NCBI GenBank assembly: GCA_010015805.1
Contig: ML978136.1
Coordinates: 62,001-126,000, forward strand
Direction: 5' to 3'
DNA length: 64,000 nt
Origin: Rhizodiscina lignyota
Lineage: Eukaryota
Made by a program: the position numbers and the translations under genes. The notes below the pieces were generated by a model. The model was given only the letters and a program-made list of their open reading frames with translations. It did no database searches and was not told the origin of the DNA. This document shows, one piece after another, positions 17,125 to 58,367 of the stretch. Position 1 is the first letter of the stretch, and every line of letters starts with the position of its first letter.

Positions 17125-20100
17125 TCAACCCTTTGTCGGACTAGCACTCTCCCTCCCACTCCCCACCACACTGCTGAACCGCCTCTTGACATTGCCCCAG
17201 ACCTCTCCAACCTTGCCCAATCCGCCCGCACTGCCCGGTCGACTCTGGCTCCCACCCTCCTGGACCCCCTGCTGTGCCTGCAGCCTGGGATCGATCGGGA
17301 GCGCCGCCGGCGCCATCACCTGCCCCTGTTGCTGTTGCTGTGCGAGCCTCACCTCATCAGCCGAGAGGCTCCTGCGCTCCGGATTCTGGTACTGCTGCGG
17401 CGGTAGTGGAGGCTGGCTCTGGCTCTGCGACTCGCGGCGTGAGTGCGGCTGGCTGCGATTGCCGGGGAACTCGTGCATGGCCCAACCCTGTACCTGGAAC
17501 GTCGGGCTGTGTGCCGAAGCCGATGCACTGGCGCTTCGCTCGCGCCTCGCCGAGTGCACCGGATCGTACACCTGCCCGCCGCTCCCAGATTGGGATTGGC
17601 CTTGGTTCTGTTGCTGCTGGAGGGGGATGCTGCTTAGTGGGATCATGATCGTCTCGCCGCGGGAACCGCCTGCCCGCCTGCCGTTGCTCTTTCGCGCGCT
17701 TGAATGAACCTGGACTTGAGGTTCAAATGCGGGACCTAGCATCGGCTGTGGCTGGGCTGGCGGGTGATGAGGTGGTGGTGGCTGAGACTGAAACTGCATC
17801 TGGCCTGGCGGCTGCGACGGCTGCGGTGGCTGCGACGGTTGCGGCGGTTGCGGCGGTTGCGGCGGTTGCGGTGGATGCGGTGGATGTGATGGATGTGGTG
17901 GATGTGGTGGGTGTGGTGTTGGAGGTGCTGGGCCCATAGGTCCGGGTTGCATAGATGGTGCTGGTGCAATGACAATGCCATTTCCTTGAGAAATTACCGG
18001 GCTTCCAGCTGTAGAAGGTGCTGGAGCGAAAGTTGGCCCTGGGGGCGTCGATGTTGATGGTCCGGGGCGAGGTTGGATATTATGAATCTTTCCACCGCCA
18101 ATGCTGCTTCTGTTTCTTATGCCTTTTGGCTGTATGTTCGGATAGTATGCGCGGTCGATGGCTGCTGATGGAGGCGGGGCTGCGATCATCGAAATCGTTA
18201 CGTTTGGAGTGGTGGATGAGCTTGGTAACGACGGCAGAGGAGCTGGGTTGACTGGAAATACACTCGTTGAAGGAGATGGCACGCCCGATGAATTCTTGCG
18301 GCTTGACGTGCCTGCGATGCTAACTTTCCCGCTACCGTCTCCGAGACCAGGCTCCCACCGACGGACATTTAAGCCCGCTGTTTCCCACGTTTGGATACCA
18401 GATTCGCGGATGAATTTTTCACGTTGTTCGTTTGTTGGAACTGCATTTCTTTGGCTTTCTCCGTGAGGTGGCGCTTGCGCTGGGAGCGGCGCAGCCGCGA
18501 GGGCTCTTCCATTTCCCTGGGAAGGATGTAAGTTCTGGATGGAGTAATAGGGGCCATGATGTGCAAACATTGCAGGGTTAGGATTTCCGAACATCGGAGG
18601 GGGTTGAGCCCCAAACAGACCTGATCCTGGCGGTCCCGGGGGTGCCTGTCCAATGGCCGTAAGTCCACCGCCGTATCCGTGCATCTGCTGGTGTTGGTGT
18701 TGAGTGGCCAGTTCCATCTGCTGGTCCATCTGCCTCTGTGCCTCTCGCTGTGCATTCTCGTGTGCTAACTTCTCTGCTGCTGCTTTAGATACCCGTTCCA
18801 CTTCCAGTGCCCTCTTCCGGTGAGCCCACCACAACGTCATTGACTTACTGCGCTTTTCGGACTTCACACGCTGCTTCCTCTTTCCCTCAGGGGCTACTGG
18901 AGGCTGAGCTCCCGTGGGACCAACTGGCGGTGCGTTAGTAGTGGTTGAGCCAGATTCAGGATCGCCGAGAACTGAATCTTCTGATTTGCGTTGAGCACCT
19001 GGTGACGCCGAGCCCGGCATGACATCCGGTGGGAGATCGAAAGTGATCTTCGGCTTATCAGCCTTCTTTTGCACTTCGTCGACGAATGGATCCTGCACAG
19101 ACTCCGTAGAAGTGACGACAGGCGCAGGCGTCAGGGACTCGCGCATTTCGTTTGCAAGTTCTGCAATTGTCGGTGGCAGCGGAGATCGTGAAGCGGTTCT
19201 GGGTCCCTTTGGTATACCAGCATCTGATCGAATGGCATTGTTCTTCCTTCCCTTAGGTCTGCCGGGGCGCTTTCTTGTTGGGTCAGGCGATCCACTAGCA
19301 TCTCTCGCTGCTGCATCCTCCTCACTTGTCAAAGTCATCGTGCTCTCTGCTCTCATTTCCCTGATTCTTGGAATGGCCAAGGTCGACCCGCTAACAACAG
19401 CTGCGGCCTTTTCAGCAGCACTTGGTCTTCCACGCTTCTTCCTGCTACCTTCTGCCTCGGGCGTGGCCTCGAGTGGCCTCTTGTTGTTGCTGTTGCGACC
19501 TTTGGCTTCAGGCATGGCGTCATATCTCTGAACAGCTTTGCGCTTTCTCTTGCCGGCAGTACTAGCGACTCCTGCACCAAGTCCTCCTTCTGTGCCAGCG
19601 CCCGCAGCGCTCTGATTGCCCTCGTCGTCTTCGGTACCGACATCGCCAACTTCCCTTAAGCGACGAGCACGAAGCTCTCGGCCGCCCACAGATTCGCGTC
19701 CAGTGCGCTGCGCAAAAGGATTTTGAGTACCTGGCTCCTTCTTTGGATCGTATGTGTAGCCGTAGAGGTCCGCTTCCTTCATGTCTTCCCAAATTTCTGC
19801 ACGAACGGGTTCTCGGCCACCGGTGGCAGGCTTCTTAGGGGGATGCTGGTGCGGAGATGTGCGTGCATCAAGCTCTATATATTCCTTTTGCCATGTGTCC
19901 AGAATGAGCGCAATGTTCTCAGTGATAGCATAGAGACTTTCTGTGGAGCGCTTGGACGGATGAACTTTCGTAAGAGCCTTGATCAACACCGCAGGATCCG
20001 TCAGCGGAGCGAAACGAGTCTGCTTAATGTACTCCGCGTACTCCCTGAAATCTTCAGGGCGAGGGGTGGGGGGTCTTGATCCGTACGCCGAAGGAAGATC

Positions 20101-21105
20101 TTCGTCCATGATAACGTCGTACAGCTCATCTACCTCTCCATCATCGCCTTGTTCTTCTTGAGCTGTATAGGCTTGCGTATCTTGTTGGGTGGTTGGTTCG
20201 TCAGATGCCAACTCGACCTCTAATTCAGGAACGTCCGGGATGACTGCTTCTTGAGTAGCAGCTTCTTGTTGCGTCACTTCTGCTTCCTGGCTTGGCTGAT
20301 CATCTTGGAGGGCTGCAGGTGGAAGAGCAACACCTCCAGATGGAAGAGGAACACCTCCAGATGCAAGAGGAACATCTCCAGACGGAAGAGGAACACCTCC
20401 AGATGGGAGAAGTACACCTCCAGATGGAACAGGCACATCTACCGTCTCTCCTTCTTGCTGACTCGGGTAATCAGGCTCAGGCTCATCGAGTCGGGCTTCT
20501 GCTGCAGTGCGCTTTTCACCTACTTCTGCTGCAGTGCGTTTTCCACCTCTTCGTCCACCTCTACCGCCACGACGCCCACCACGTCCACGTCCTCTGGTGG
20601 CAGCGGGCTTGACTTCGAGTGAATGAGTCTCGCCATTAACTTGCTCCTCGATTCTCTGCTCAAGTTCTTTTGAGATCTGCTCTTCGACAAGATCAGCTTC
20701 CGGGACCTTTTCATCGGGAGCAGCGCTATTGAGTGAAGCGTTGGAATCGGTTCTGCGCTTCTTGATAGGTCGCTTGGAGTGTGGGTCGGTCTTCTCTTCG
20801 CTTTCTTCTTCTTCTTCTTCATGGATATCTTGGCCCGATTCGAGACGCTCGAAATGCTCAGGTTGGAGGCCGGAAATCACGAGATGTGTTTTGGTGCCAG
20901 TGCGGCCTTGGCGCTCAGAACGCGCGACGATTGGAACACGCCCAACGACAATTTGAGATTTGATGGAGGAATTTGAGGAGGAGCGTGCAAATGAGCGATC
21001 AGACTTGATAGAATTTGATGCCGATGATTTTGCAGACAGCGCTGCTGTTGTGTTGCTGGCCGAGGCAGGAGCCCGGCCAGACCGGGTGCGCATTTTTGGC
21101 GGCAT
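17125..21105 (-). CDS. Large intronless, mostly low-complexity nuclear protein with AT-hook-like and RGG motifs
   Basis: ~1326-codon ORF from ATG 21105. RGRGRGGRRGGRGG, KKRGRPS, RKRPGRPKGRK; one ordered segment (LDTWQKEYIELD..WEDMKEADLYGY); Pro/Gln-rich tail. Confidence 0.8.
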   Translation of the reverse strand: MPPKMRTRSGRAPASASNTTAALSAKSSASNSIKSDRSFARSSSNSSIKSQIVVGRVPIVARSERQGRTGTKTHLVISGLQPEHFERLESGQDIHEEEEEESEEKTDPHSKRPIKKRRTDSNASLNSAAPDEKVPEADLVEEQISKELEQRIEEQVNGETHSLEVKPAATRGRGRGGRRGGRGGRRGGKRTAAEVGEKRTAAEARLDEPEPDYPSQQEGETVDVPVPSGGVLLPSGGVPLPSGDVPLASGGVPLPSGGVALPPAALQDDQPSQEAEVTQQEAATQEAVIPDVPELEVELASDEPTTQQDTQAYTAQEEQGDDGEVDELYDVIMDEDLPSAYGSRPPTPRPEDFREYAEYIKQTRFAPLTDPAVLIKALTKVHPSKRSTESLYAITENIALILDTWQKEYIELDARTSPHQHPPKKPATGGREPVRAEIWEDMKEADLYGYTYDPKKEPGTQNPFAQRTGRESVGGRELRARRLREVGDVGTEDDEGNQSAAGAGTEGGLGAGVASTAGKRKRKAVQRYDAMPEAKGRNSNNKRPLEATPEAEGSRKKRGRPSAAEKAAAVVSGSTLAIPRIREMRAESTMTLTSEEDAAARDASGSPDPTRKRPGRPKGRKNNAIRSDAGIPKGPRTASRSPLPPTIAELANEMRESLTPAPVVTSTESVQDPFVDEVQKKADKPKITFDLPPDVMPGSASPGAQRKSEDSVLGDPESGSTTTNAPPVGPTGAQPPVAPEGKRKQRVKSEKRSKSMTLWWAHRKRALEVERVSKAAAEKLAHENAQREAQRQMDQQMELATQHQHQQMHGYGGGLTAIGQAPPGPPGSGLFGAQPPPMFGNPNPAMFAHHGPYYSIQNLHPSQGNGRALAAAPLPAQAPPHGESQRNAVPTNEQREKFIRESGIQTWETAGLNVRRWEPGLGDGSGKVSIAGTSSRKNSSGVPSPSTSVFPVNPAPLPSLPSSSTTPNVTISMIAAPPPSAAIDRAYYPNIQPKGIRNRSSIGGGKIHNIQPRPGPSTSTPPGPTFAPAPSTAGSPVISQGNGIVIAPAPSMQPGPMGPAPPTPHPPHPPHPSHPPHPPQPPQPPQPPQPSQPPQPSQPPGQMQFQSQPPPPHHPPAQPQPMLGPAFEPQVQVHSSARKSNGRRAGGSRGETIMIPLSSIPLQQQQNQGQSQSGSGGQVYDPVHSARRERSASASASAHSPTFQVQGWAMHEFPGNRSQPHSRRESQSQSQPPLPPQQYQNPERRSLSADEVRLAQQQQQGQVMAPAALPIDPRLQAQQGVQEGGSQSRPGSAGGLGKVGEVWGNVKRRFSSVVGSGRESASPTKG
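17808..17925 (-). repeat. Coding 9-bp tandem repeat (PPH/PPQ/PSQ)
   Basis: (GGTTGCGGC)n and (GGATGTGGT)n units visible on the + strand. Confidence 0.75.
20320..20430 (-). repeat. Coding 21-bp minisatellite x5 (PSGGVPL)
   Basis: Unit TGGAAGAGGAACACCTCCAGA repeated about 5 times on the + strand. Confidence 0.9.
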
Positions 21106-21664
21106 GCGAGCTTGCGCGGCACCCAAAATTCAAGAAAGATTGTAGAAACGATGCTCTGGCTGAATGGAGGTTGAGTAAGAGTGGAGAGTGGTGTGCACAA
21201 TTGCACTGTCAGCTGTCGAGTTTGCAGGTGATTGACTTTGCAAAACCCGAAGCGGCAATGGGGCTGCTCAAAGAAAGGAGCGGGTTGGATGATGTGCCAG
21301 CAATGTGAGCTGAACGATGCAAGTGTGCGCGAAGGGAGCGGCGTGAAAATGAGTTTGGAAGGTGTAAGTCTCTCGAGAGAATGCTTCAAAGGATTCTGGC
21401 GAGAGGCGAAGGGTAGTTTGGGTGTTGTAAAGGAAGAAGAGCAATGTTGCTGTTCTCTCTGACTTCTGCCAAACTAGCGTGCTTCCGCCAGCCAATCAGC
21501 GCCCGCGCCACACGCCAGGGTGCATGGGTGGCAGCTCGATGCCCCAAAGCAGCTGCGACAATAGCACCACCACCAGCTGTCTCCCCCATTGCTACGCCCT
21601 CTATGCTCCCTAACTACCATTCATGACCAGCTGATACACATTCTACCGCCACCCACTCCCCGCA

Positions 21665-30561: not shown

Positions 30562-30568
30562 TATATAA
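30562..30568 (+). promoter_or_regulatory. TATA box of the repeat-protein gene
   Basis: TATATAA ~180 bp upstream of ATG, followed by a CT-rich tract and CATCAAAATG start context. Confidence 0.6.
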
Positions 30569-30740
30569 TACTCCAACTCTCCTCCCCTCAGTCTCTCTCT
30601 CCATCAGCCAACAAAACAATCAAAACACATCAGCTTTCCTAGCTCTTAATCTTTCATATCTCTTTTTTCCTTACTCTCATTATTTCATTAGTCGTAAATC
30701 TTAATCCCTCGCTCAACCCCAACCAACTCCAACCATCAAA

Positions 30741-32578
30741 ATGCAGTTGACCAGCTCTCTCATCGCGGCGTTGTTCGCCTCCGGCAGCATCGTCGCCGCA
30801 GCACCAGCTCCCCGCCCGAATGCCAACTCGGTCGGCTCCTACTCCCACGCCAGCTACAAGGACGGCAAGCCGGAGATCTCCCAGTCCGGCTACGTTTACC
30901 ACGACGGCCATTACAAGGGCTACCACTCCGGCTACAAGAACGGCGAGCACTACGGCGAGCACTACGACAAGCGTTCGTTCGGTGACAAGAACGCCAAGTC
31001 GGAGTCCAATGCCAAAACCCGCTTCGGTGATGCTGAGGCCAAGTCCGATGCAGACGCCAACTCCCGCTTCGGCGATGCTGATGCTTCTTCGAAGGCTAAC
31101 GCAAAGACCGAGTTNNNNNNNNNNNNNNNNNNNNNNNNNNNNNNNNNNNNNNNNNNNNNNNNNNNNNNNNNNNNNNNNNNNNNNNNNNNNNNNNNNNNNN
31201 NNNNNNNNNNNNNNNNNNNNNNNNNNNNNNNNNNNNNNNNNNNNNNNNNNNNNNNNNNNNNNNNNNNNNNNNNNNNNNNNNNNNNNNNNNNNNNNNNNNN
31301 NNNNNNNNNNNNNNNNNNNNNNNNNNNNNNNNNNNNNNNNNNNNNNNNNNNNNNNNNNNNNNNNNNNNNNNNNNNNNNNNNNNNNNNNNNNNNNNNNNNN
31401 NNNNNNNNNNNNNNNNNNNNNNNNNNNNNNNNNNNNNNNNNNNNNNNNNNNNNNNNNNNNNNNNNNNNNNNNNNNNNNNNNNNNNNNNNNNNNNNNNNNN
31501 NNNNNNNNNNNNNNNNNNNNNNNNNNNNNNNNNNNNNNNNNNNNNNNNNNNNNNNNNNNNNNNNNNNNNNNNNNNNNNNNNNNNNNNNNNNNNNNNNNNN
31601 NNNNNNNNNNNNNNNNNNNNNNNNNNNNNNNNNNNNNNNNNNNNNNNNNNNNNNNNNNNNNNNNNNNNNNNNNNNNNNNNNNNNNNNNNNNNNNNNNNNN
31701 NNNNNNNNNNNNNNNNNNNNNNNNNNNNNNNNNNNNNNNNNNNNNNNNNNNNNNNNNNNNNNNNNNNNNNNNNNNNNNNNNNNNNNNNNNNNNNNNNNNN
31801 NNNNNNNNNNNNNNNNNNNNNNNNNNNNNNNNNNNNNNNNNNNNNNNNNNNNNNNNNNNNNNNNNNNNNNNNNNNNNNNNNNNNNNNNNNNNNNNNNNNN
31901 NNNNNNNNNNNNNNNNNNNNNNNNNNNNNNNNNNNNNNNNNNNNNNNNNNNNNNNNNNNNNNNNNNNNNNNNNNNNNNNNNNNNNNNNNNNNNNNNNNNN
32001 NNNNNNNNNNNNNNNNNNNNNNNNNNNNNNNNNNNNNNNNNNNNNNNNNNNNNNNNNNNNNNNNNNNNNNNNNNGCAGATGCCAACAACCGTGGCTTTGG
32101 CGATGCCGATGCTTCGTCTAAGGCTAATGCAAAGACCGAATTCGGCGATGCTACTGCTGTTTCCACTGCCGATGCAAACTCCCGATTCGGTGATGCTTCT
32201 GCTTCTTCGGAGGCTAACGCGTCTAGCCAGTTCGGTGACGCGACTGCTATCTCAAGTGCCACTGCTGACAAGCGCGGCTACCGCTACTCCTATGGCCGCA
32301 AGTCCCGCTTCGGTGACAAGAACGCCAACTCTGAGTCCAATGCCAACACTCGCTTCGGTGACGCTACCGCCATCTCCAACGCCGACGCGAAAAACAGCGG
32401 CTTCGGTGATGCTTCTGCTTCTTCCAAAGCCAATGCGCACACCGAATTCGGTGACGCTACTGCCGTGTCCACAGCCGATGCAAACTCCAGATTCGGTGAT
32501 GCCTCTGCTTCTTCGGAGGCTCACGCATCTACTGAATTCGGTGATGCCGTTGCTATCTCAAGCGCCACCGCTGAGTAA
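30741..32578 (+). CDS. Secreted Kex2-site-containing repeat protein with FGDA 15-aa repeats (function unknown); spans assembly gap
   Basis: Signal peptide MQLTSSLIAALFASGSIVAAAP; DKR at 30966-30974 and 32267-32275. The post-gap frame starting 32075 (not the frames shown in the ORF track) reads ADANNRG-FGDADASSKANAKTE-FGDATAVSTADANSR...FGDAVAISSATAE*, TAA 32576-32578. Confidence 0.85.
31115..32074. other. Assembly gap (960 N) inside the tandem-repeat CDS
   Basis: Run of n; the same repeat flanks both sides. Confidence 0.99.
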
Positions 32579-33830: not shown

Positions 33831-36323
33831 TCAGTCCTCCTTGCTCTCTTCGGCAAATTTCGCCTGCTCGCCTGCTTCATCTCTCTCTTGTCTCTCTTCC
33901 AGACCCCTTTCCTTCTCGACGGCTGGCTTGCTTTCTACTTCGGCCATCTCGAGGTCCTCGGCAGGGAGGTCCTTCGTATCAGCTGTAGTCTGTGTGCCCG
34001 GCTGATTTGTGTCTGGCTCAACAGGAGGATTCCGCGGATCTGAAGACGTAGCTGCTGGTGCGTTTGGTGAAGCGGGTGGCGTTGTTTCTGCGAGTACGTT
34101 TGACTCCTGTGCGTTGGATGCTTCATTCGGCACTGGTGTTACTGCTTTCTCCTGCACGGCCCCTTCGGTATCAAGGGTAGCATTATCTGCATGAGTGGCC
34201 GGATCAGTAGGCTCCTCTTTGACTTCCTCTGTCTTGGCCGGCCTCTCGTCACTCGCACCGTCCATGTCGATATCGCCATCATCATATTCCATCGTTCTGT
34301 CCGCGTCCGCCGGCTCGTCGTCTTCCTCATCTGCGTCGTCCACATCGACATCGGCGTCCTCAGCATCCGCATCTCCTCCCAGTCCCGGTGCTGGACTGCC
34401 TTCCGTAACCTTGAGCGCCCTCTCCGCCTTCGCGCTGCTAATCGCAGCATTCTCCTCACGACTTCCGCTTGCGTCGCCCATGGTCACGTCAGCATTCACA
34501 TCGCCATTCGCGCTACCCGTAGCACTCCTGCTCCGCATGCCTGGACTCTGTGTCGCCAAGCGGCTTGCCATGCCGCTCTCCGGCTCAAAGTCGGGCACCG
34601 CATTCGGGTTTTGGAAATCCATTATTCCTCGTCTGCGCTTCTGTCCGGGCTGTCTCCTGACCCCGTTCTGCTCGTTCATCTCCTCGTCCTCACTGTCATC
34701 GAACTCGTCGTCTCGCGTGATTTTGGCGTCCCAAGTGCGCTGGGTGTAGCGAACGTCCGGGTTAGCATCAGCGTCCTCGTCATCAGCAGCGTCTTCAGCG
34801 TCCGAGTCAAGGCCATCCATGAGGGAGGTACGGGGCACGTCTTGAGCTTGCACAGATGGTACGGCAGCGGTGAGTTTGAGGTTCTCGATAACTTGGATTT
34901 TGATCTTCTCGAGATAGTCCGGAGAGTTGGCGTTCTCCATGTTAGAGGGGCGTACATTGAGCTCGTAGTCAGGGGCGAAATACTGCGCATGTTGTTAGCA
35001 ACATTAGCTAATATCAGGATATAACGTACCTCGTAATAATCGTTAAAAGGTAATTGTGCGCCCAAATCTTGGGTGACTAGCTGGCCAGTCTCGAATGCCC
35101 ATGTTCTTGCAACATTTCGCATGGTATAGCCACCGCCTCCCAGCACCAGCGTAGGCAGATTGAAACCCTTAACGAAGTTGACGCAATTTGCGTGACCCCT
35201 CATGCTCAAGTTAAAGCATCCAAGGCGATCGCCGCTCAAACTGTCACCACCACATTGCAGAACCACCGCTTCAGGGCGGTAGTAGTCCATGACAGCTTTG
35301 ATAACCGGTTCGAAGATGCCTTTGTATGTCTTATCCGTAATACCATCTCGCAGTGGGAAGTTCACAGCGTAGTTTTTGCCCTCGCCCACACCGATGTCTC
35401 GAAGCTCACCGGTACCAGGGAAGTATTCGCCGTATTTGTGGAATGAGACAGTCATGACGCGATCTGTGGTATAGAAAGCTTCTTCGACGCCGTCGCCGTG
35501 GTGCACATCGATGTCGATGTAGAGGACGCGCTTGTGAAATCTCAGGAGTTCGATGATGCCAAGGACGATGTCTGCGCGCGATATGTCAGCGTTGGGAACG
35601 TAGTATACCAAAGTCTTAGTTCGGACAGGATAGCACTAGACGCACCATTAATGTAGCAAAATCCAGATGCCTCGCTCTTCTTCGCGTGATGCAGTCCTCC
35701 AGCCCAGTTGACTGCGACATCGCATTTACCGCGATTCAAGCGCGCAGCGCCCTCCATGCTACCGCCAGCGCTGATACCACAGAACTCGAAGAGGCCATCA
35801 AATACAGGACAATCGTCTCCCACATTGTATCTCGCTTGCTCCTTAGAGTAGTTGTCCATGTTGTCGGGTGTAACCTTTTGAAGGAAGTCGACGTATTCGT
35901 CGGTGTGGAACTGCGTCATTTCGAATTTCGAGGCTGGTTTCGCGCGCTATCTGCTCGTCAGATTCCCATTCATGCAATAATCATAGCATAATAATATGAA
36001 TATCAGTTCCATTTGAGAATATGAGGTAAGAATCGTGGGCGTTTGTGAGAGCAGACAAGGAGGAGCAATTGCTCACTTGAGAACTTGCTGTCCGATTATT
36101 ATCAGAAAATTGGACATACATATATCTCCATCTTCTTGTAGAGGCCGTAGTTCATAATCAAGCTGTGTGCGACTCGTATTCTGTGAGGCTTCATGGGATG
36201 CCCCGACACATATGCATAGTTGCCAACGTCTGAATCGTAGAAGTATGCGACTTTTCGAGGTTGCGCGCCATTTTGAACAGGCTCATCGATGGGAGGCCCT
36301 ATATCGTTCTTGTCGGTCGCCAT
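33831..36323 (-). CDS. rpd3: Class I histone deacetylase Rpd3/RpdA
   Basis: Exons 36323-36120, 35946-35646, 35571-35030, 34982-33831. [43 protein letters not shown]; acidic C-terminal tail. Confidence 0.97.
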
Positions 36324-36701
36324 AGCTGAGGAGATGGGATGGAAAGCTATGCGACAGGTGTCGATTGTGGATGTCGTCGTGATTGGAATCGAAGCTTGAG
36401 GAGGGAGGAAGAATGGCAGCGGCGAGCACACATGCACTGCGCATGAGAGAGGTGGCTGGGCGGGGGCGTTGATTGGACGGAGCTAAGCGCGCGTGTATGC
36501 CGCTGCCACTTCCAGAAGCTTGCGGAAGAAGCAGAAGCTCCATCACCACGCAACCTCCTCTGCCTGTCTTTGCCTCTGTCATCCTCTGCAAATCTCCTGC
36601 TCTTCACTCACACCGCGAGCTGCTCTCCTCTAAGGCCGCAGGCACCCTTCTTATCGACTACTTTCTCACACTTTGTCAGCCGAAAGGCGTTTCGTTTCAA
36701 G

Positions 36702-38063
36702 ATGGATCGATTAAACCGAATGCTCCAGGCCGCGCAGCAGATGGGCGGCATGGGTGGCTCTGGTCCAGCGCAGGTAAGCAATAATGCCTCGCGCATATTG
36801 GGGTCGCATTTCGTATCCAGGCAGCCCATCAGACGCGTCTAGTGCGCCATAATGCGGCTCTCCGCTCCATGCCCTCTTCTGCGAAACTCATCGCTATCTA
36901 CACCTCTGAGGAATTTTACTGGCACCACATATTCTTACAATGGCTTCATGGCAGGACACGAACTTGATCGACAACTCCGAGACCGTCTACATCTCTTCCC
37001 TCGCCCTCCTCAAGATGTTGCGACATGGCCGAGCAGGCGTGCCGATGGAAGTCATGGGTCTGATGCTGGGAGAATTTGTGGATGACTACACAGTACGAGT
37101 AGTGGATGTCTTCGCAATGCCACAGAGTGGGACAGGCGTTAGTGTAGAGGCGGTGGACCCAGTCTTCCAGACCAAGATGATGGACATGCTGCGACAGACA
37201 GGAAGGTATGTTGTGGAAATCTCAAATGCAACGCTCTAGCTCCGAGATCTCATATCACCAAGAGAACAATAGCTAATGACCGCAATCATAGACCAGAAAC
37301 AGTCGTCGGCTGGTACCACTCACATCCTGGCTTCGGCTGCTGGCTCTCCTCCGTCGATATCAACACCCAACAGTCCTTCGAACAACTCACTCCCCGCGCT
37401 GTAGCTGTCGTCGTCGATCCCATCCAGTCTGTCAAGGGCAAAGTCGTCATCGATGCATTCCGCCTTATCAACCCCCAGATCCTCATGATGGGCCACGAGC
37501 CGCGACAAACAACTTCCAACTTGGGACATCTGAACAAGCCATCAATACAAGCGCTCATCCATGGCTTGAACAGACATTATTACAGTATCGGGATTAACTA
37601 TAGGAAGACCGGTCTGGAGGAGAACATGCTGATGAATCTGCACAAGCAGGTGTGGACAGAGGCGCTCCAGATGGAGGACTTCCACGGCGAGGCGGAGAGG
37701 AACAAGGACAGGCTGAAGAGGCTTGTCACCCTTGCAGAGGGCTATGAGAAGCGCGTAAAAGAGGAGACGGAGTTGACTAAGGACCAGCTGAAGACGAGAT
37801 ACGTCGGCAAAGTGGATCCAAAGAAGCGTAAGTATAAATAATGGACGCTTCATTAATGGTGTCAAATTTCTAACATTTCTACAGATCTGGAGGACGTAGG
37901 TCAGCAACTTATCGAAGACAATATCGTCTCCGTCTCGCGCCAAATGATCGACAAAGAGGCCTCGGTCCCATCCGAGAAGGCATCCACGATTGCAAACGGT
38001 GGTCACGCAAACGGAGCAAACGGGGCAAATGGACACTCGATGGATGTTGATGAAGAGCTGTGA
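36702..38063 (+). CDS. rpn11: 26S proteasome lid deubiquitinase Rpn11
   Basis: Exons 36702-36773, 36955-37205, 37292-37827, 37885-38063. JAMM motif [29 protein letters not shown]. Confidence 0.98.
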
Positions 38064-55431: not shown

Positions 55432-55937
55432 CTGATAATGAAGTATTATAGTAGTTCGTCGACCGGAAGGGAAAGTGCGAAGAGTACTGAGATTCGTTGT
55501 GAAGCCATCAAACCCCGCGGCGATGAGATGAATGGTATGATTCCCGGTAGTGTTCTGATTCTATATAACCAGATATATTCTGTAGCCCCGTCGGGAGCTC
55601 TTTAATTGGCTGGCAATCCTCTGAAGCAAGTTCACTCTGAGTTACGAATACCAGGGATATGGAGATGACACCGTCCTATTCTTGCAGTGCGGTCTCTAGC
55701 TGAGGCTCAATATCCCCGCCAACCTTAAAAGGAGTTGCTCTCCATATGTAGCTTGAAGTTGGCAGCCCCCTGTCTTTTTCGAGGTGCAGTATTTTAGGCA
55801 ACAGTCCCCCTCTCTATCTTAATTGTAGATGCACCTCTCAACCTCAGTCGGGCCTCGTCGAAAATCATTTCACTTCCGAGCCATTCGATATCCGTTACAC
55901 CCCGAAGTGCTCAAGGTCGGGAGATTACGTGTTAAAA

Positions 55938-58367
55938 ATGACTGCTCTGCCTATCGATTTGTATGCCGATGGTATCCTTAGTACCGCCAACACATCCAAC
56001 CCCGACATCACTGTGAAACCATGCAACCTCTGTTCCTGCGCCAGAGGCTACATATCTTATACGGAGGCTACTTTCAGCGACATGTGGGAGCTTTTTCATT
56101 CCTCGTGCTCGTCCTGCTCTGATGCGGAAACGCAGCATCCGACACTTCTTTGCGAGTTCTGTCGACATCTTCGCCTACCACATTTCGACCAGTGCTTGCC
56201 TCCCGCAATTAGGGAACGAGTTCAGCTGAATATTGGAAATCTCGCGGAACGAAGTGCGGAATGTCAGTTCTGCTCCTTCATCTTAAGAATCGTCGACCTC
56301 GAAGTTGGCGCGCTCTCCTCTACCAGTGCGTCGCTAGATAACCAGTCAATCCTAATCAAAGAAGCGAGCCATATTCGTACTAATACTATCCACTGGAGCT
56401 TTGAAGATGATAATAGAAATTGTGGGTATTTTACGCTACAGACGGCGCCCTTCGACCGTTTTGTAGATTGGCGACAGGTCCGCAGCTGGATTCCGAATTC
56501 CATGACTGAATCTTGCAGTAAAGTCAGTTTGCCTCAGCATTTAATAGACAACTTCAAGCTCATCGATATTCAAAGAAAGTGTATAATTAATGCACCGAAT
56601 CCTTGCCAGTACATCACGCTTAGTTACGTTTGGGGCAACGATTCATCGCGCTACTTCAGGGCCTCTCTGGATAACATCACGTTTCTGGAGACTCCAGGAG
56701 CTTTGGATACGATTGATCTCCCAAGGAGCGTTTCAGATGCAATTGAGGCTTGCTCAAAGCTTGGATACAATCACCTCTGGGTAGATTGTCTATGTATTCT
56801 CTCCGATGATGCCGAGAGCAAGCATGAACAGATCGGCCAGATGGATAAGATCTATGAAGGCTCTGAACTGTGCATTGTTGCAGCAGCAGGACCAGATGCA
56901 AGCTACGGACTTCCAGGCATATCTCGCGGTCGGGGCTGCAGGGATGGGGAAGGAGAAATCTACGGCTTGAAACTTCGACCGCTTCTTCATTCTGCAAGCA
57001 CTCTGATCGATGCAAGCAAATGGGCTCAACGGGCGTGGACATACCAAGAGGACATTATGTCCAATTGCCGGCTGTTCTTCACTGACATGGGCGCATTCTT
57101 CCATATACGTCTACCGCATCGTCAACATTATATCACTGATCAGCCCGCCTGCACCGGCTTGCAAACCTCTGGGCCCATGGGGAGCGCCGCACTTGAATAT
57201 CCTGCCATGCTATTCGGATATACGCGCCGGGAACTTTCTTTTAGTGAAGATATTCTCAGAGCGTTTTCCGGCATCTTACACCGCCTCTTCGAGCAAGCAA
57301 CAATATTCGGCCTACCCCTTAGCCAATTTGATCGAGCAATCCTCTGGCATACTGACGACTATCTGAGCACGGCACGTTGTTCAAATGTAGACTGCCTCTT
57401 CCCGTCTTGGTCATGGACGTCAGCATTTGGTACAATTCGCACCTCGACGGACAACTCTGGCGTTGCGCTCTGGGCAATCGCCACTGCCAAAGGCAAATCT
57501 CATCAAAATTTAACAATCATGATCCCTGATCCTGAGCTGTGCATGGAATACGAAGACTGCAGTGCCTGTATGTTCGCTTGGGCCTCAGGGTGCGTTGCAG
57601 CGGCCCGTCCCACCAATATCGACCTCCAAAATTTCACGCAACAAGATATCTTGTCGCCCAACTATCGGTGGAATAGCTATAAGGATTACTGGATGGAAGT
57701 TTTCGGTGAATACCTTACAAACCCGCCATTCTCAAGAGAGGAAACTGAGATTGCTCGTACGAATGGTCGACTGCTTGTGTTTACCCAAGAAGCCAAGTTC
57801 AGGATCAACCTCATCGACAAGGTTGACACGTGGACCCCAGGAAAGCGGTATGTCGAAATTCGGGGCACTGACGGAAGGACGGCGGGTTTAATCCAACTCA
57901 GCGAGCATCACATAAAAAGGTTCCTCACTAGTACCTATGACTCCGCTAGATTCATCGCGCTCTCGGCAGGCACCGATCCCGCTCACGAACTGCATCCAAT
58001 CGAGTGCATTAGCTGTGGTCAAACCCACGAACCAGACCTAAGCGCAAGCCTGCCGGGCGATTCATGCGGGAGGCAGAACGCGCCAAGCGTCCTTTCAGAT
58101 CAAGATCACAGCATCGAACAGCTTCTCAAACCGCCTCCTTCAGGCTTCTCAACTAGTATTTTCTTCCTGGACACGGAAGGAAAGCCACAGTCGGCCCAGA
58201 TTGTTCCAGTGTGGCAGGTTCTAAGACCTGTCATGATGAACGTCATGCTTGTGGCAAGCGACGACCCAAGCGATGACAGGGTCGTACGGAGGGTCGGCAT
58301 TGGGCAAATATATCTCAGGAAATGGGCGCGAGCAGAACGGAGATTGCGAACGCTTATCCTGGAATGA
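55938..58367 (+). CDS. Heterokaryon incompatibility (HET-domain) protein
   Basis: Intronless ORF; YITLSYVWG, LWVDCLCI, QIGQMDKIY, WAQRAWTYQE, FPSWSW, C-terminal RRVGIG. Confidence 0.93.
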   Translation: MTALPIDLYADGILSTANTSNPDITVKPCNLCSCARGYISYTEATFSDMWELFHSSCSSCSDAETQHPTLLCEFCRHLRLPHFDQCLPPAIRERVQLNIGNLAERSAECQFCSFILRIVDLEVGALSSTSASLDNQSILIKEASHIRTNTIHWSFEDDNRNCGYFTLQTAPFDRFVDWRQVRSWIPNSMTESCSKVSLPQHLIDNFKLIDIQRKCIINAPNPCQYITLSYVWGNDSSRYFRASLDNITFLETPGALDTIDLPRSVSDAIEACSKLGYNHLWVDCLCILSDDAESKHEQIGQMDKIYEGSELCIVAAAGPDASYGLPGISRGRGCRDGEGEIYGLKLRPLLHSASTLIDASKWAQRAWTYQEDIMSNCRLFFTDMGAFFHIRLPHRQHYITDQPACTGLQTSGPMGSAALEYPAMLFGYTRRELSFSEDILRAFSGILHRLFEQATIFGLPLSQFDRAILWHTDDYLSTARCSNVDCLFPSWSWTSAFGTIRTSTDNSGVALWAIATAKGKSHQNLTIMIPDPELCMEYEDCSACMFAWASGCVAAARPTNIDLQNFTQQDILSPNYRWNSYKDYWMEVFGEYLTNPPFSREETEIARTNGRLLVFTQEAKFRINLIDKVDTWTPGKRYVEIRGTDGRTAGLIQLSEHHIKRFLTSTYDSARFIALSAGTDPAHELHPIECISCGQTHEPDLSASLPGDSCGRQNAPSVLSDQDHSIEQLLKPPPSGFSTSIFFLDTEGKPQSAQIVPVWQVLRPVMMNVMLVASDDPSDDRVVRRVGIGQIYLRKWARAERRLRTLILE

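Follow-up and report, generated by a model that had tools for sequence, protein, structure and literature searches.

The window, the whole stretch of 64,000 nt of fungal DNA analysed here, contains on its forward strand an open reading frame (ORF) that starts at position 30741 and closes with the stop codon 32576–32578, its interior being interrupted by an assembly gap. There are 124 codons before the gap (31115–32074, 960 N), and coding resumes beyond it in another frame. Because the frames differ on its two sides, the size of the gap is an estimate only. The features of the locus are as follows.

30562..30568, forward strand: TATA-like box, followed by a CT-rich stretch, 179 nt 5' of the ATG; a consensus match only
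30741..30800, forward strand: signal-peptide-like segment, residues 1–20, from the hydropathy profile
30801..30974, forward strand: N-terminal 58-aa segment, residues 21–78, X-Pro/X-Ala dipeptides and then a Tyr/His/Gly-rich part
30975..31114, forward strand: module 1, repeats 1–3 (starts 30978, 31023 and 31068), from the sequence
31115..32074, no strand: assembly gap, 960 N, presumably holding the remainder of module 1 and 3–4 further modules
32075..32275, forward strand: penultimate module, repeats 3–6, of which repeat 6 closes in DKR (KR at 32270–32275)
32276..32308, forward strand: 11-aa leader, basic and aromatic, that opens the last module; it includes an RK pair and is modelled with low confidence
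32309..32578, forward strand: last module, six repeats and stop, a predicted three-coil flat beta-solenoid

A divergent housekeeping pair lies directly downstream (33831–37841), with a histone deacetylase on the reverse strand and the proteasome protein RPN11 on the forward strand, and the repeat gene lies outside any biosynthetic cluster. No paralogue of it is present within the 64,000-nt window. A dikaritin (ustiloxin-type) RiPP precursor was considered and rejected: DUF3328 occurs in 0 of 36 ORFs scanned across the window, the scan taking in exons of about 130 aa and longer.

The 9-residue hydropathy is 1.1–2.1 across residues 1–16, in agreement with the signal peptide noticed in a first-pass annotation of this DNA, and the profile of the sequenced protein contains no later hydrophobic, membrane or anchor segment. 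The following 58-aa segment holds 9 Tyr, 6 His and 8 Gly; it starts with X-Pro/X-Ala dipeptides, which we take to be a Ste13-type signature, and closes with the first KR (30969–30974). It is covered at 100 per cent by RNA-library contigs, without an intron, and has no family match in Pfam or NCBIfam. The Tyr/His/Gly-rich segment (30801–30974) would come off as a peptide of its own, of 50–58 aa, with metal binding or wall cross-linking as possible functions. Three records (13, 14 and 16) of the soil RNA-library run X4, aligned to window positions 30717–30890, represent relatives that have the signal peptide in common with this gene, as well as a short block within the N-terminal segment, and diverge around that block; the segment is possibly the mark of a broader secreted-protein family.

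Beyond this segment the sequenced protein is built mainly of repeats of 15 residues, and FGD opens all 13 of them (F1-G2-D3). Ala or Ser occupies position 4 in 11 of the 13 repeats and positions 6, 8, 10 and 12 in every one, position 8 being invariably Ser, so that 63 of the 65 inward positions are Ala/Ser. Thr/Val/Ile are found at both positions 5 and 7 in five of the six even repeats and in none of the seven odd ones; in module 1, repeat 2 carries Glu/Lys in place of the Thr/Ile of other repeats. Cys is absent from both sequenced parts. The small-residue positions, the alternation of two repeat types and the lack of Cys had all been described in the first-pass annotation and are borne out by these counts, and the string that it gave for the last module matches exactly at 32276–32575. 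It had also inferred one Thr/Val/Ile face and one charged face, and the latter is not clear: in the last module the even face carries 8 Thr/Val/Ile per 15 outward positions (4 of them Thr, without TxT) and 4 charged residues, whereas the odd face carries 0 Thr/Val/Ile and 3 charged residues per 15. A degenerate two-repeat pattern has seven matches in the window, all inside this ORF, and 0 in 100 shuffles.

Repeats 1 and 6 are closer to their counterparts in other modules (11/13 identical) than to neighbouring repeats. They keep their own identity between modules, and the six-repeat module is therefore the duplicated unit. The repeats of the last module start at 32309, 32354, 32402, 32447, 32492 and 32537; this module is hydrophilic and acidic (10.1 kDa, pI 5.0, GRAVY −0.70). 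There are 14 Gly per 167 aa, one per repeat. Lys residues stand at normally inward sites in repeat 1 (position 4; 32318–32320 and also 30987–30989) and in repeat 6 (position 14; 32270–32272), and these junction residues are possible gatekeepers of stacking.

The assembled sequence contains two KR sites, and the multi-module layout comes from contigs of public sequencing runs, which imply about five module junctions, the KR letters being visible in part of those copies only. From module 1, one RNA-library contig and one DNA contig of run X1 read on into the gap without a frame change and add more FGD repeats; X1 is possibly the source of the assembly itself and hence not independent. In X1 the depth is 146–151 over the unique flanks and 416, 154 and 151 over the module-end-like contigs, which suggests, among the contigs listed, about five junctions and six modules. 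In one contig (record 7) a module end and a module start lie about three residues apart (145 + 36 matched + 12 loose letters = 193). The gap would have to hold 774 nt for five modules and 1054 nt for six, against 960 N in the assembly. We infer 5–6 modules of about 91–100 aa and a precursor of about 550–650 aa. The claim that DKR sites delimit modules of about 102 aa thus survives in part: the six-repeat layout and two assembled KR sites agree with it, the other junctions are read from run contigs, and the length is lower, 100 aa for the last module and about 91–94 aa for the internal modules as they appear in those contigs.

A codon comparison over seven equivalent repeat pairs gives 49 identical codons, 29 silent differences and 13 replacements. 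Alternative reading frames over the ORF were ruled out, since the silent changes cluster in the FGD frame. Judged from its codons, the repeat ORF is under selection at the protein level, and the gene is real and working. The stretch is present in four public runs (X1–X4). In the soil RNA-library run X4, three of six contigs match at 99 per cent or more; these, at 30741–30891, 30868–31114 and 32169–32319, show 0 differences and no intron, in a type of library that tells neither strand nor level and in which DNA may occur. The last of these contigs bridges the junction of the penultimate and last modules. Runs X2 and X3 contain diverged coding pieces and the 3' flank. The cover of the RNA runs ends at 30688 upstream and 33015 downstream, which is not counted as evidence.

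No characterised family was recognised in sequence searches of Pfam, NCBIfam and the PDB, in line with the first impression of an unfamiliar protein. Pfam gave nothing above its cut-off (a weak nucleoporin FG match reached 21 bits versus 32), the NCBIfam scan gave no match and the PDB search no solved homologue. A word-indexed protein search with the C-terminal part returned none in either length range, one of which was crowded, so that it counts as weak evidence. The ESM Atlas contains no usable match for the fungal protein or for the algal-type protein described below, an absence that does not amount to novelty. No fungal relative was found in the protein, profile and family searches run, and no literature on such a fungal or algal repeat family was found in a search of mainly open-access papers.

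Searching 1.84 billion representative sequences with phmmer gave eight matches, of which six share the same 15-residue register (best E 2e-10, 47% identity). Two composition matches, P0006 and P0010 (a Nup214), were dropped. A profile search recovered three proteins, two being its own inputs and the third a seventh protein with this register. The seven (P0004, P0005, P0007, P0008, P0009, P0011 and P0015) come from ENA/Logan/JGI contigs. Their common register is Gly2, Ala4, Ala6, Ser8, Ala10 and Ala12, and in six of the seven the array closes with a dibasic GRRL. Protein P0008 begins with a signal-peptide-like segment and contains 11 repeats. Pattern scans yielded one viral, six metagenome and three prokaryote loci, and the repeat is present in two of these ten (L002 and L006); the other eight, including all three prokaryote loci and the viral one, are unrelated low-complexity sequences.

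The gene at L002:1782–3194 (forward strand), like that at L006, is multi-exon-like, with a GC content of 68 per cent; its product begins with a signal-peptide-like segment, contains many Gly/Ala/Ser repeats of 15 residues, has Cys close to its ends and keeps the fungal repeat register. Together with P0008, these loci suggest an undescribed algal solenoid family. The look-alike proteins, none of them named, would be green-algal, to judge from GC content and exon structure. Identity of the outward faces between fungal and algal-type repeats does not exceed that of column shuffles (ranks 14, 36 and 98 of 120). The likeness is therefore one of core and turn only, and on present sequences convergence of the two kinds of repeat appears as likely as descent. 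If the fibre-precursor reading proposed below is right, it would indicate an undescribed repeat family in fungi and apparently in green algae.

From the single sequence, AlphaFold2 produced one model with pLDDT 89 and four with 37–45. With a seven-row alignment, which took in four of the look-alike and apparently green-algal proteins, the five models range from 87.5 to 89.7 and have six strands of 9–13 residues per module. Structural comparison with 48,161 chains identified only three at Z of at least 5, all of them arthropod antifreeze proteins: that of a snow flea (2pne; Z 7.4, rmsd 2.2, 79 aligned), of a springtail (7jjv; Z 7.1, rmsd 2.3, 86 aligned) and of a beetle (6xnr; Z 6.8, rmsd 5.3, 66 aligned, under Z 8). 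The reliable level of Z 8 is reached by no chain among the 48,161. Chains of curli type come next (CsgA Z 4.0, FapC Z 3.7; Z 3.7–4.2 over two comparisons), and no Foldseek match at E 0.001 is found in the PDB or viral libraries. Read from these models, the antifreeze matches point to a layout of two flat layers, but not to a function.

AlphaFold2 is reported to return confident but unrealistic solenoids for repeats and to confuse their handedness (bioRxiv 10.1101/2025.03.18.644030). Independent support for the predicted fold is found in the sequence itself, in the strict alternation of small residues and the difference between odd and even faces. We consider it likely, from models and sequence together, that the module folds as a flat beta-solenoid. 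That reading would be an artefact if the modules were hydrophilic, mostly disordered Ala/Ser-rich chains that protect against stress outside the cell or are cut at the recurring Arg-Phe bonds into short peptides; the reported over-prediction of repeat solenoids (bioRxiv 10.1101/2025.03.18.644030), the four poor single-sequence models out of five and the Arg that terminates 6 of 12 repeats speak for this, but the alternation of small and variable residues is strict, Ser is invariant, the odd and even faces differ, conservation is position-specific, distant proteins keep the same repeat register and a second, alignment-free predictor (ESMFold2) also reaches pLDDT 90, and we regard disorder as very doubtful.

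Given three copies of residues 11–100, ESMFold2 scored 0.61, the best of three controls scoring 0.10, at pLDDT 90; its runs share at least 96 per cent of contacts. In the predicted stack, repeats 1/2 of the next copy lie under repeats 5/6 of the preceding one, in register and head to tail. Among microbial structures, 21 of 30 solved homo-pairs and 0 of 23 single chains reach the mark used for stacking; among eukaryotic ones, 17 of 29 homo-pairs and 0 of 30 single chains do (1 of 7 pairs that lack an older solved relative), a calibration based on two copies, whereas the module job had three. The controls were unrelated proteins, which leaves room for the model merely continuing any uncapped repeat. 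We lean slightly towards self-stacking of the modules. The three-rung, two-sided, stacking solenoid that had been proposed from the letters is supported computationally, by the six predicted strands, the nearest solved shapes and the in-register stacks.

We propose, with a probability of roughly 0.45, that the gene encodes a precursor processed by Kex2, whose subunits, flat beta-solenoids without caps, form cross-beta fibres outside the cell. The secreted precursor would consist of the signal-peptide-like start, the Tyr/His/Gly-rich 58-aa segment and 5–6 six-repeat modules separated by KR. Each repeat is predicted to form one beta-strand and an FGD turn, and two repeats one coil; the alternating Ala/Ser would pack as a flattened core, giving a three-coil, two-sheet solenoid without a cap. 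Kex2 in the Golgi would cleave at KR and free modules of 9–10 kDa, which would assemble extracellularly, head to tail, as flat cross-beta ribbons; of the two faces of a ribbon, one would be polar (Asn/Ser) and the other striped with Thr/Val/Ile. Most likely such ribbons would have a structural role as fibres at the surface of hyphae or spores (sheath, adhesion or coat). Wild-type solenoids carry caps that prevent polymerization, and uncapped ones, including engineered RiAFP, are reported to form ThT-positive fibrils (PMC7034853); the present module has neither cap nor Cys. At cleaved Kex2 sites, acidic or small residues are favoured after KR and basic ones disfavoured (PMC2515848). The first KR fits these preferences, with small and acidic residues after it; after the internal KR comes G-Y-R, a poorer fit that counts against cleavage there.

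The processing logic of the proposed system would resemble that of Rep1, and its folded subunit that of curli. Kex2-processed repeat precursors mostly give short peptides. Here the released unit seems to be a folded, uncapped solenoid domain, a natural version of the cap-stripped RiAFP (PMC7034853). Kex2-processed repeat proteins (KEPs) likewise have a signal peptide and units between KR sites (Le Marquer 2019, PMC6339444; Umemura 2020, PMC7329392); the units here differ in lying at the upper size limit (91–100 aa), in their internal six-fold repeat and in being predicted folded domains. KEPs are defined by at least three tandem repeats of 8–100 aa between Kex2 sites (Umemura 2020, PMC7329392) or by at least four fragments after KR/RR cuts (Le Marquer 2019, PMC6339444). 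The hydropathy profile indicates an ER signal peptide, and the precursor would probably come under both definitions once the gap is closed. The repeat motifs were not found in the supplements of the two surveys (3 and 4 text files, possibly not all repeat sequences).

Rep1 of Ustilago maydis is a pre-pro-protein cut at Kex2 sites; the repeated products assemble as amyloid fibrils within the wall (PMC3133707). The Rep1 products are amphipathic, of 34–53 aa and from a basidiomycete (PMC3133707), whereas the modules here are hydrophilic, have about double that length (91–100 aa) and are predicted to fold as three-coil solenoids. The repellent-like role first suggested for the modules is weakened by their hydrophilic character (GRAVY −0.70, pI 5.0). 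The bacterial curli-type proteins CsgA and FapC are small secreted beta-solenoid subunits that polymerize head to tail. They differ from the present modules in repeat length and core, and here secretion would be eukaryotic, as a multi-subunit precursor. No curlin or Fap model matched in the Pfam and NCBIfam scans. If the proposal of a fibre precursor is right, the modules represent a new subunit of functional amyloid in fungi and offer a flat scaffold for fibres that is ready to use. We regard the gene as a real and rare secreted repeat precursor, for which the modelled flat solenoid and fibre are credible.

A second possibility keeps the solenoid fold unchanged and makes the protein ice-active, its flat Thr/Val/Ile face ordering water; lone modules would inhibit ice recrystallization, and stacked ribbons could nucleate ice. 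All three chains found at Z of at least 5 are antifreeze proteins, and Fusarium has small self-assembling ice nucleators of unknown sequence (PMC12978214, PMC13365547). The antifreeze proteins of Rhagium (RiAFP/RmAFP) and of an inchworm are flattened two-sheet solenoids with an Ala/Ser core (PMC13080227), as predicted here. In contrast to theirs, the coil here has 30 residues instead of about 24, and there is no Thr array, no cap and a polyprotein. The flattened Ala/Ser core is shared (63/65; models) and the stacked TxT array is absent; the likeness to beetle antifreeze in the first-pass annotation may extend to the flat shape (6xnr, Z 6.8, below Z 8) but does not extend to the Thr face, which has 4 Thr per 15 outward positions and no TxT. 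Asp, Lys and Glu share that face, and in repeat 2 of module 1 it carries Glu/Lys. Three coils would also offer only a small surface. Springtail polyproline-II antifreeze proteins have Gly at every third residue. The repeats here have one Gly each, though the layout aligns at Z 7.1–7.4; two of the three top structural matches are polyproline-II bundles, alike in layout only. Ice nucleation proteins of the InaZ and Mortierellaceae types have 16-residue repeats with TxT, SLT and YGS (PMC12978214, PMC13365547); the 15-residue FGD repeats here lack these motifs. Lacking a TxT array, ice activity is the lesser reading, and we consider it unlikely. Equally unlikely is a combination of the two, a polyprotein counterpart of curli in fungi in which Kex2-released flat Ala/Ser solenoids form ribbons with an ice-active long face. 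If true, fungi would here be seen for the first time to use the flattened fold of insect antifreeze proteins, and the protein would belong to an undescribed family of 15-residue solenoids common to fungi and green algae.

A third possibility is one long solenoid, with cleavage confined to the first KR or with internal cuts that just nick a continuous rod of 15–18 coils; such a rod could bind a flat repeating surface (cellulose, chitin or mineral) or take part in wall cross-linking through the Tyr-rich segments. The DKR of repeat 6 falls precisely on repeat positions 13–15, the internal modules seem to restart three residues on, so that the coil could continue, and the internal KR suits Kex2 less well than the first (PMC2515848). 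The algal-type P0008 has 11 uninterrupted repeats. However, KR is kept at both assembled module ends, and the junction Lys at normally inward positions of repeats 1 and 6 suggests a true boundary. A continuous rod seems to us improbable, and separate modules remain our preferred reading. A 90-residue Cys-free module is easily expressed, which makes the questions of fibre formation and ice activity directly testable. The gene also belongs to a class that collapses in short-read assemblies and is absent from protein collections.

Elsewhere in the window, an open frame of 1334 codons on the reverse strand (17125–21129) has no Pfam match and contains tandem arrays of 9 nt and 21 nt, and a frame of 871 codons on the forward strand (55752–58367) carries a HET (heterokaryon incompatibility) domain.
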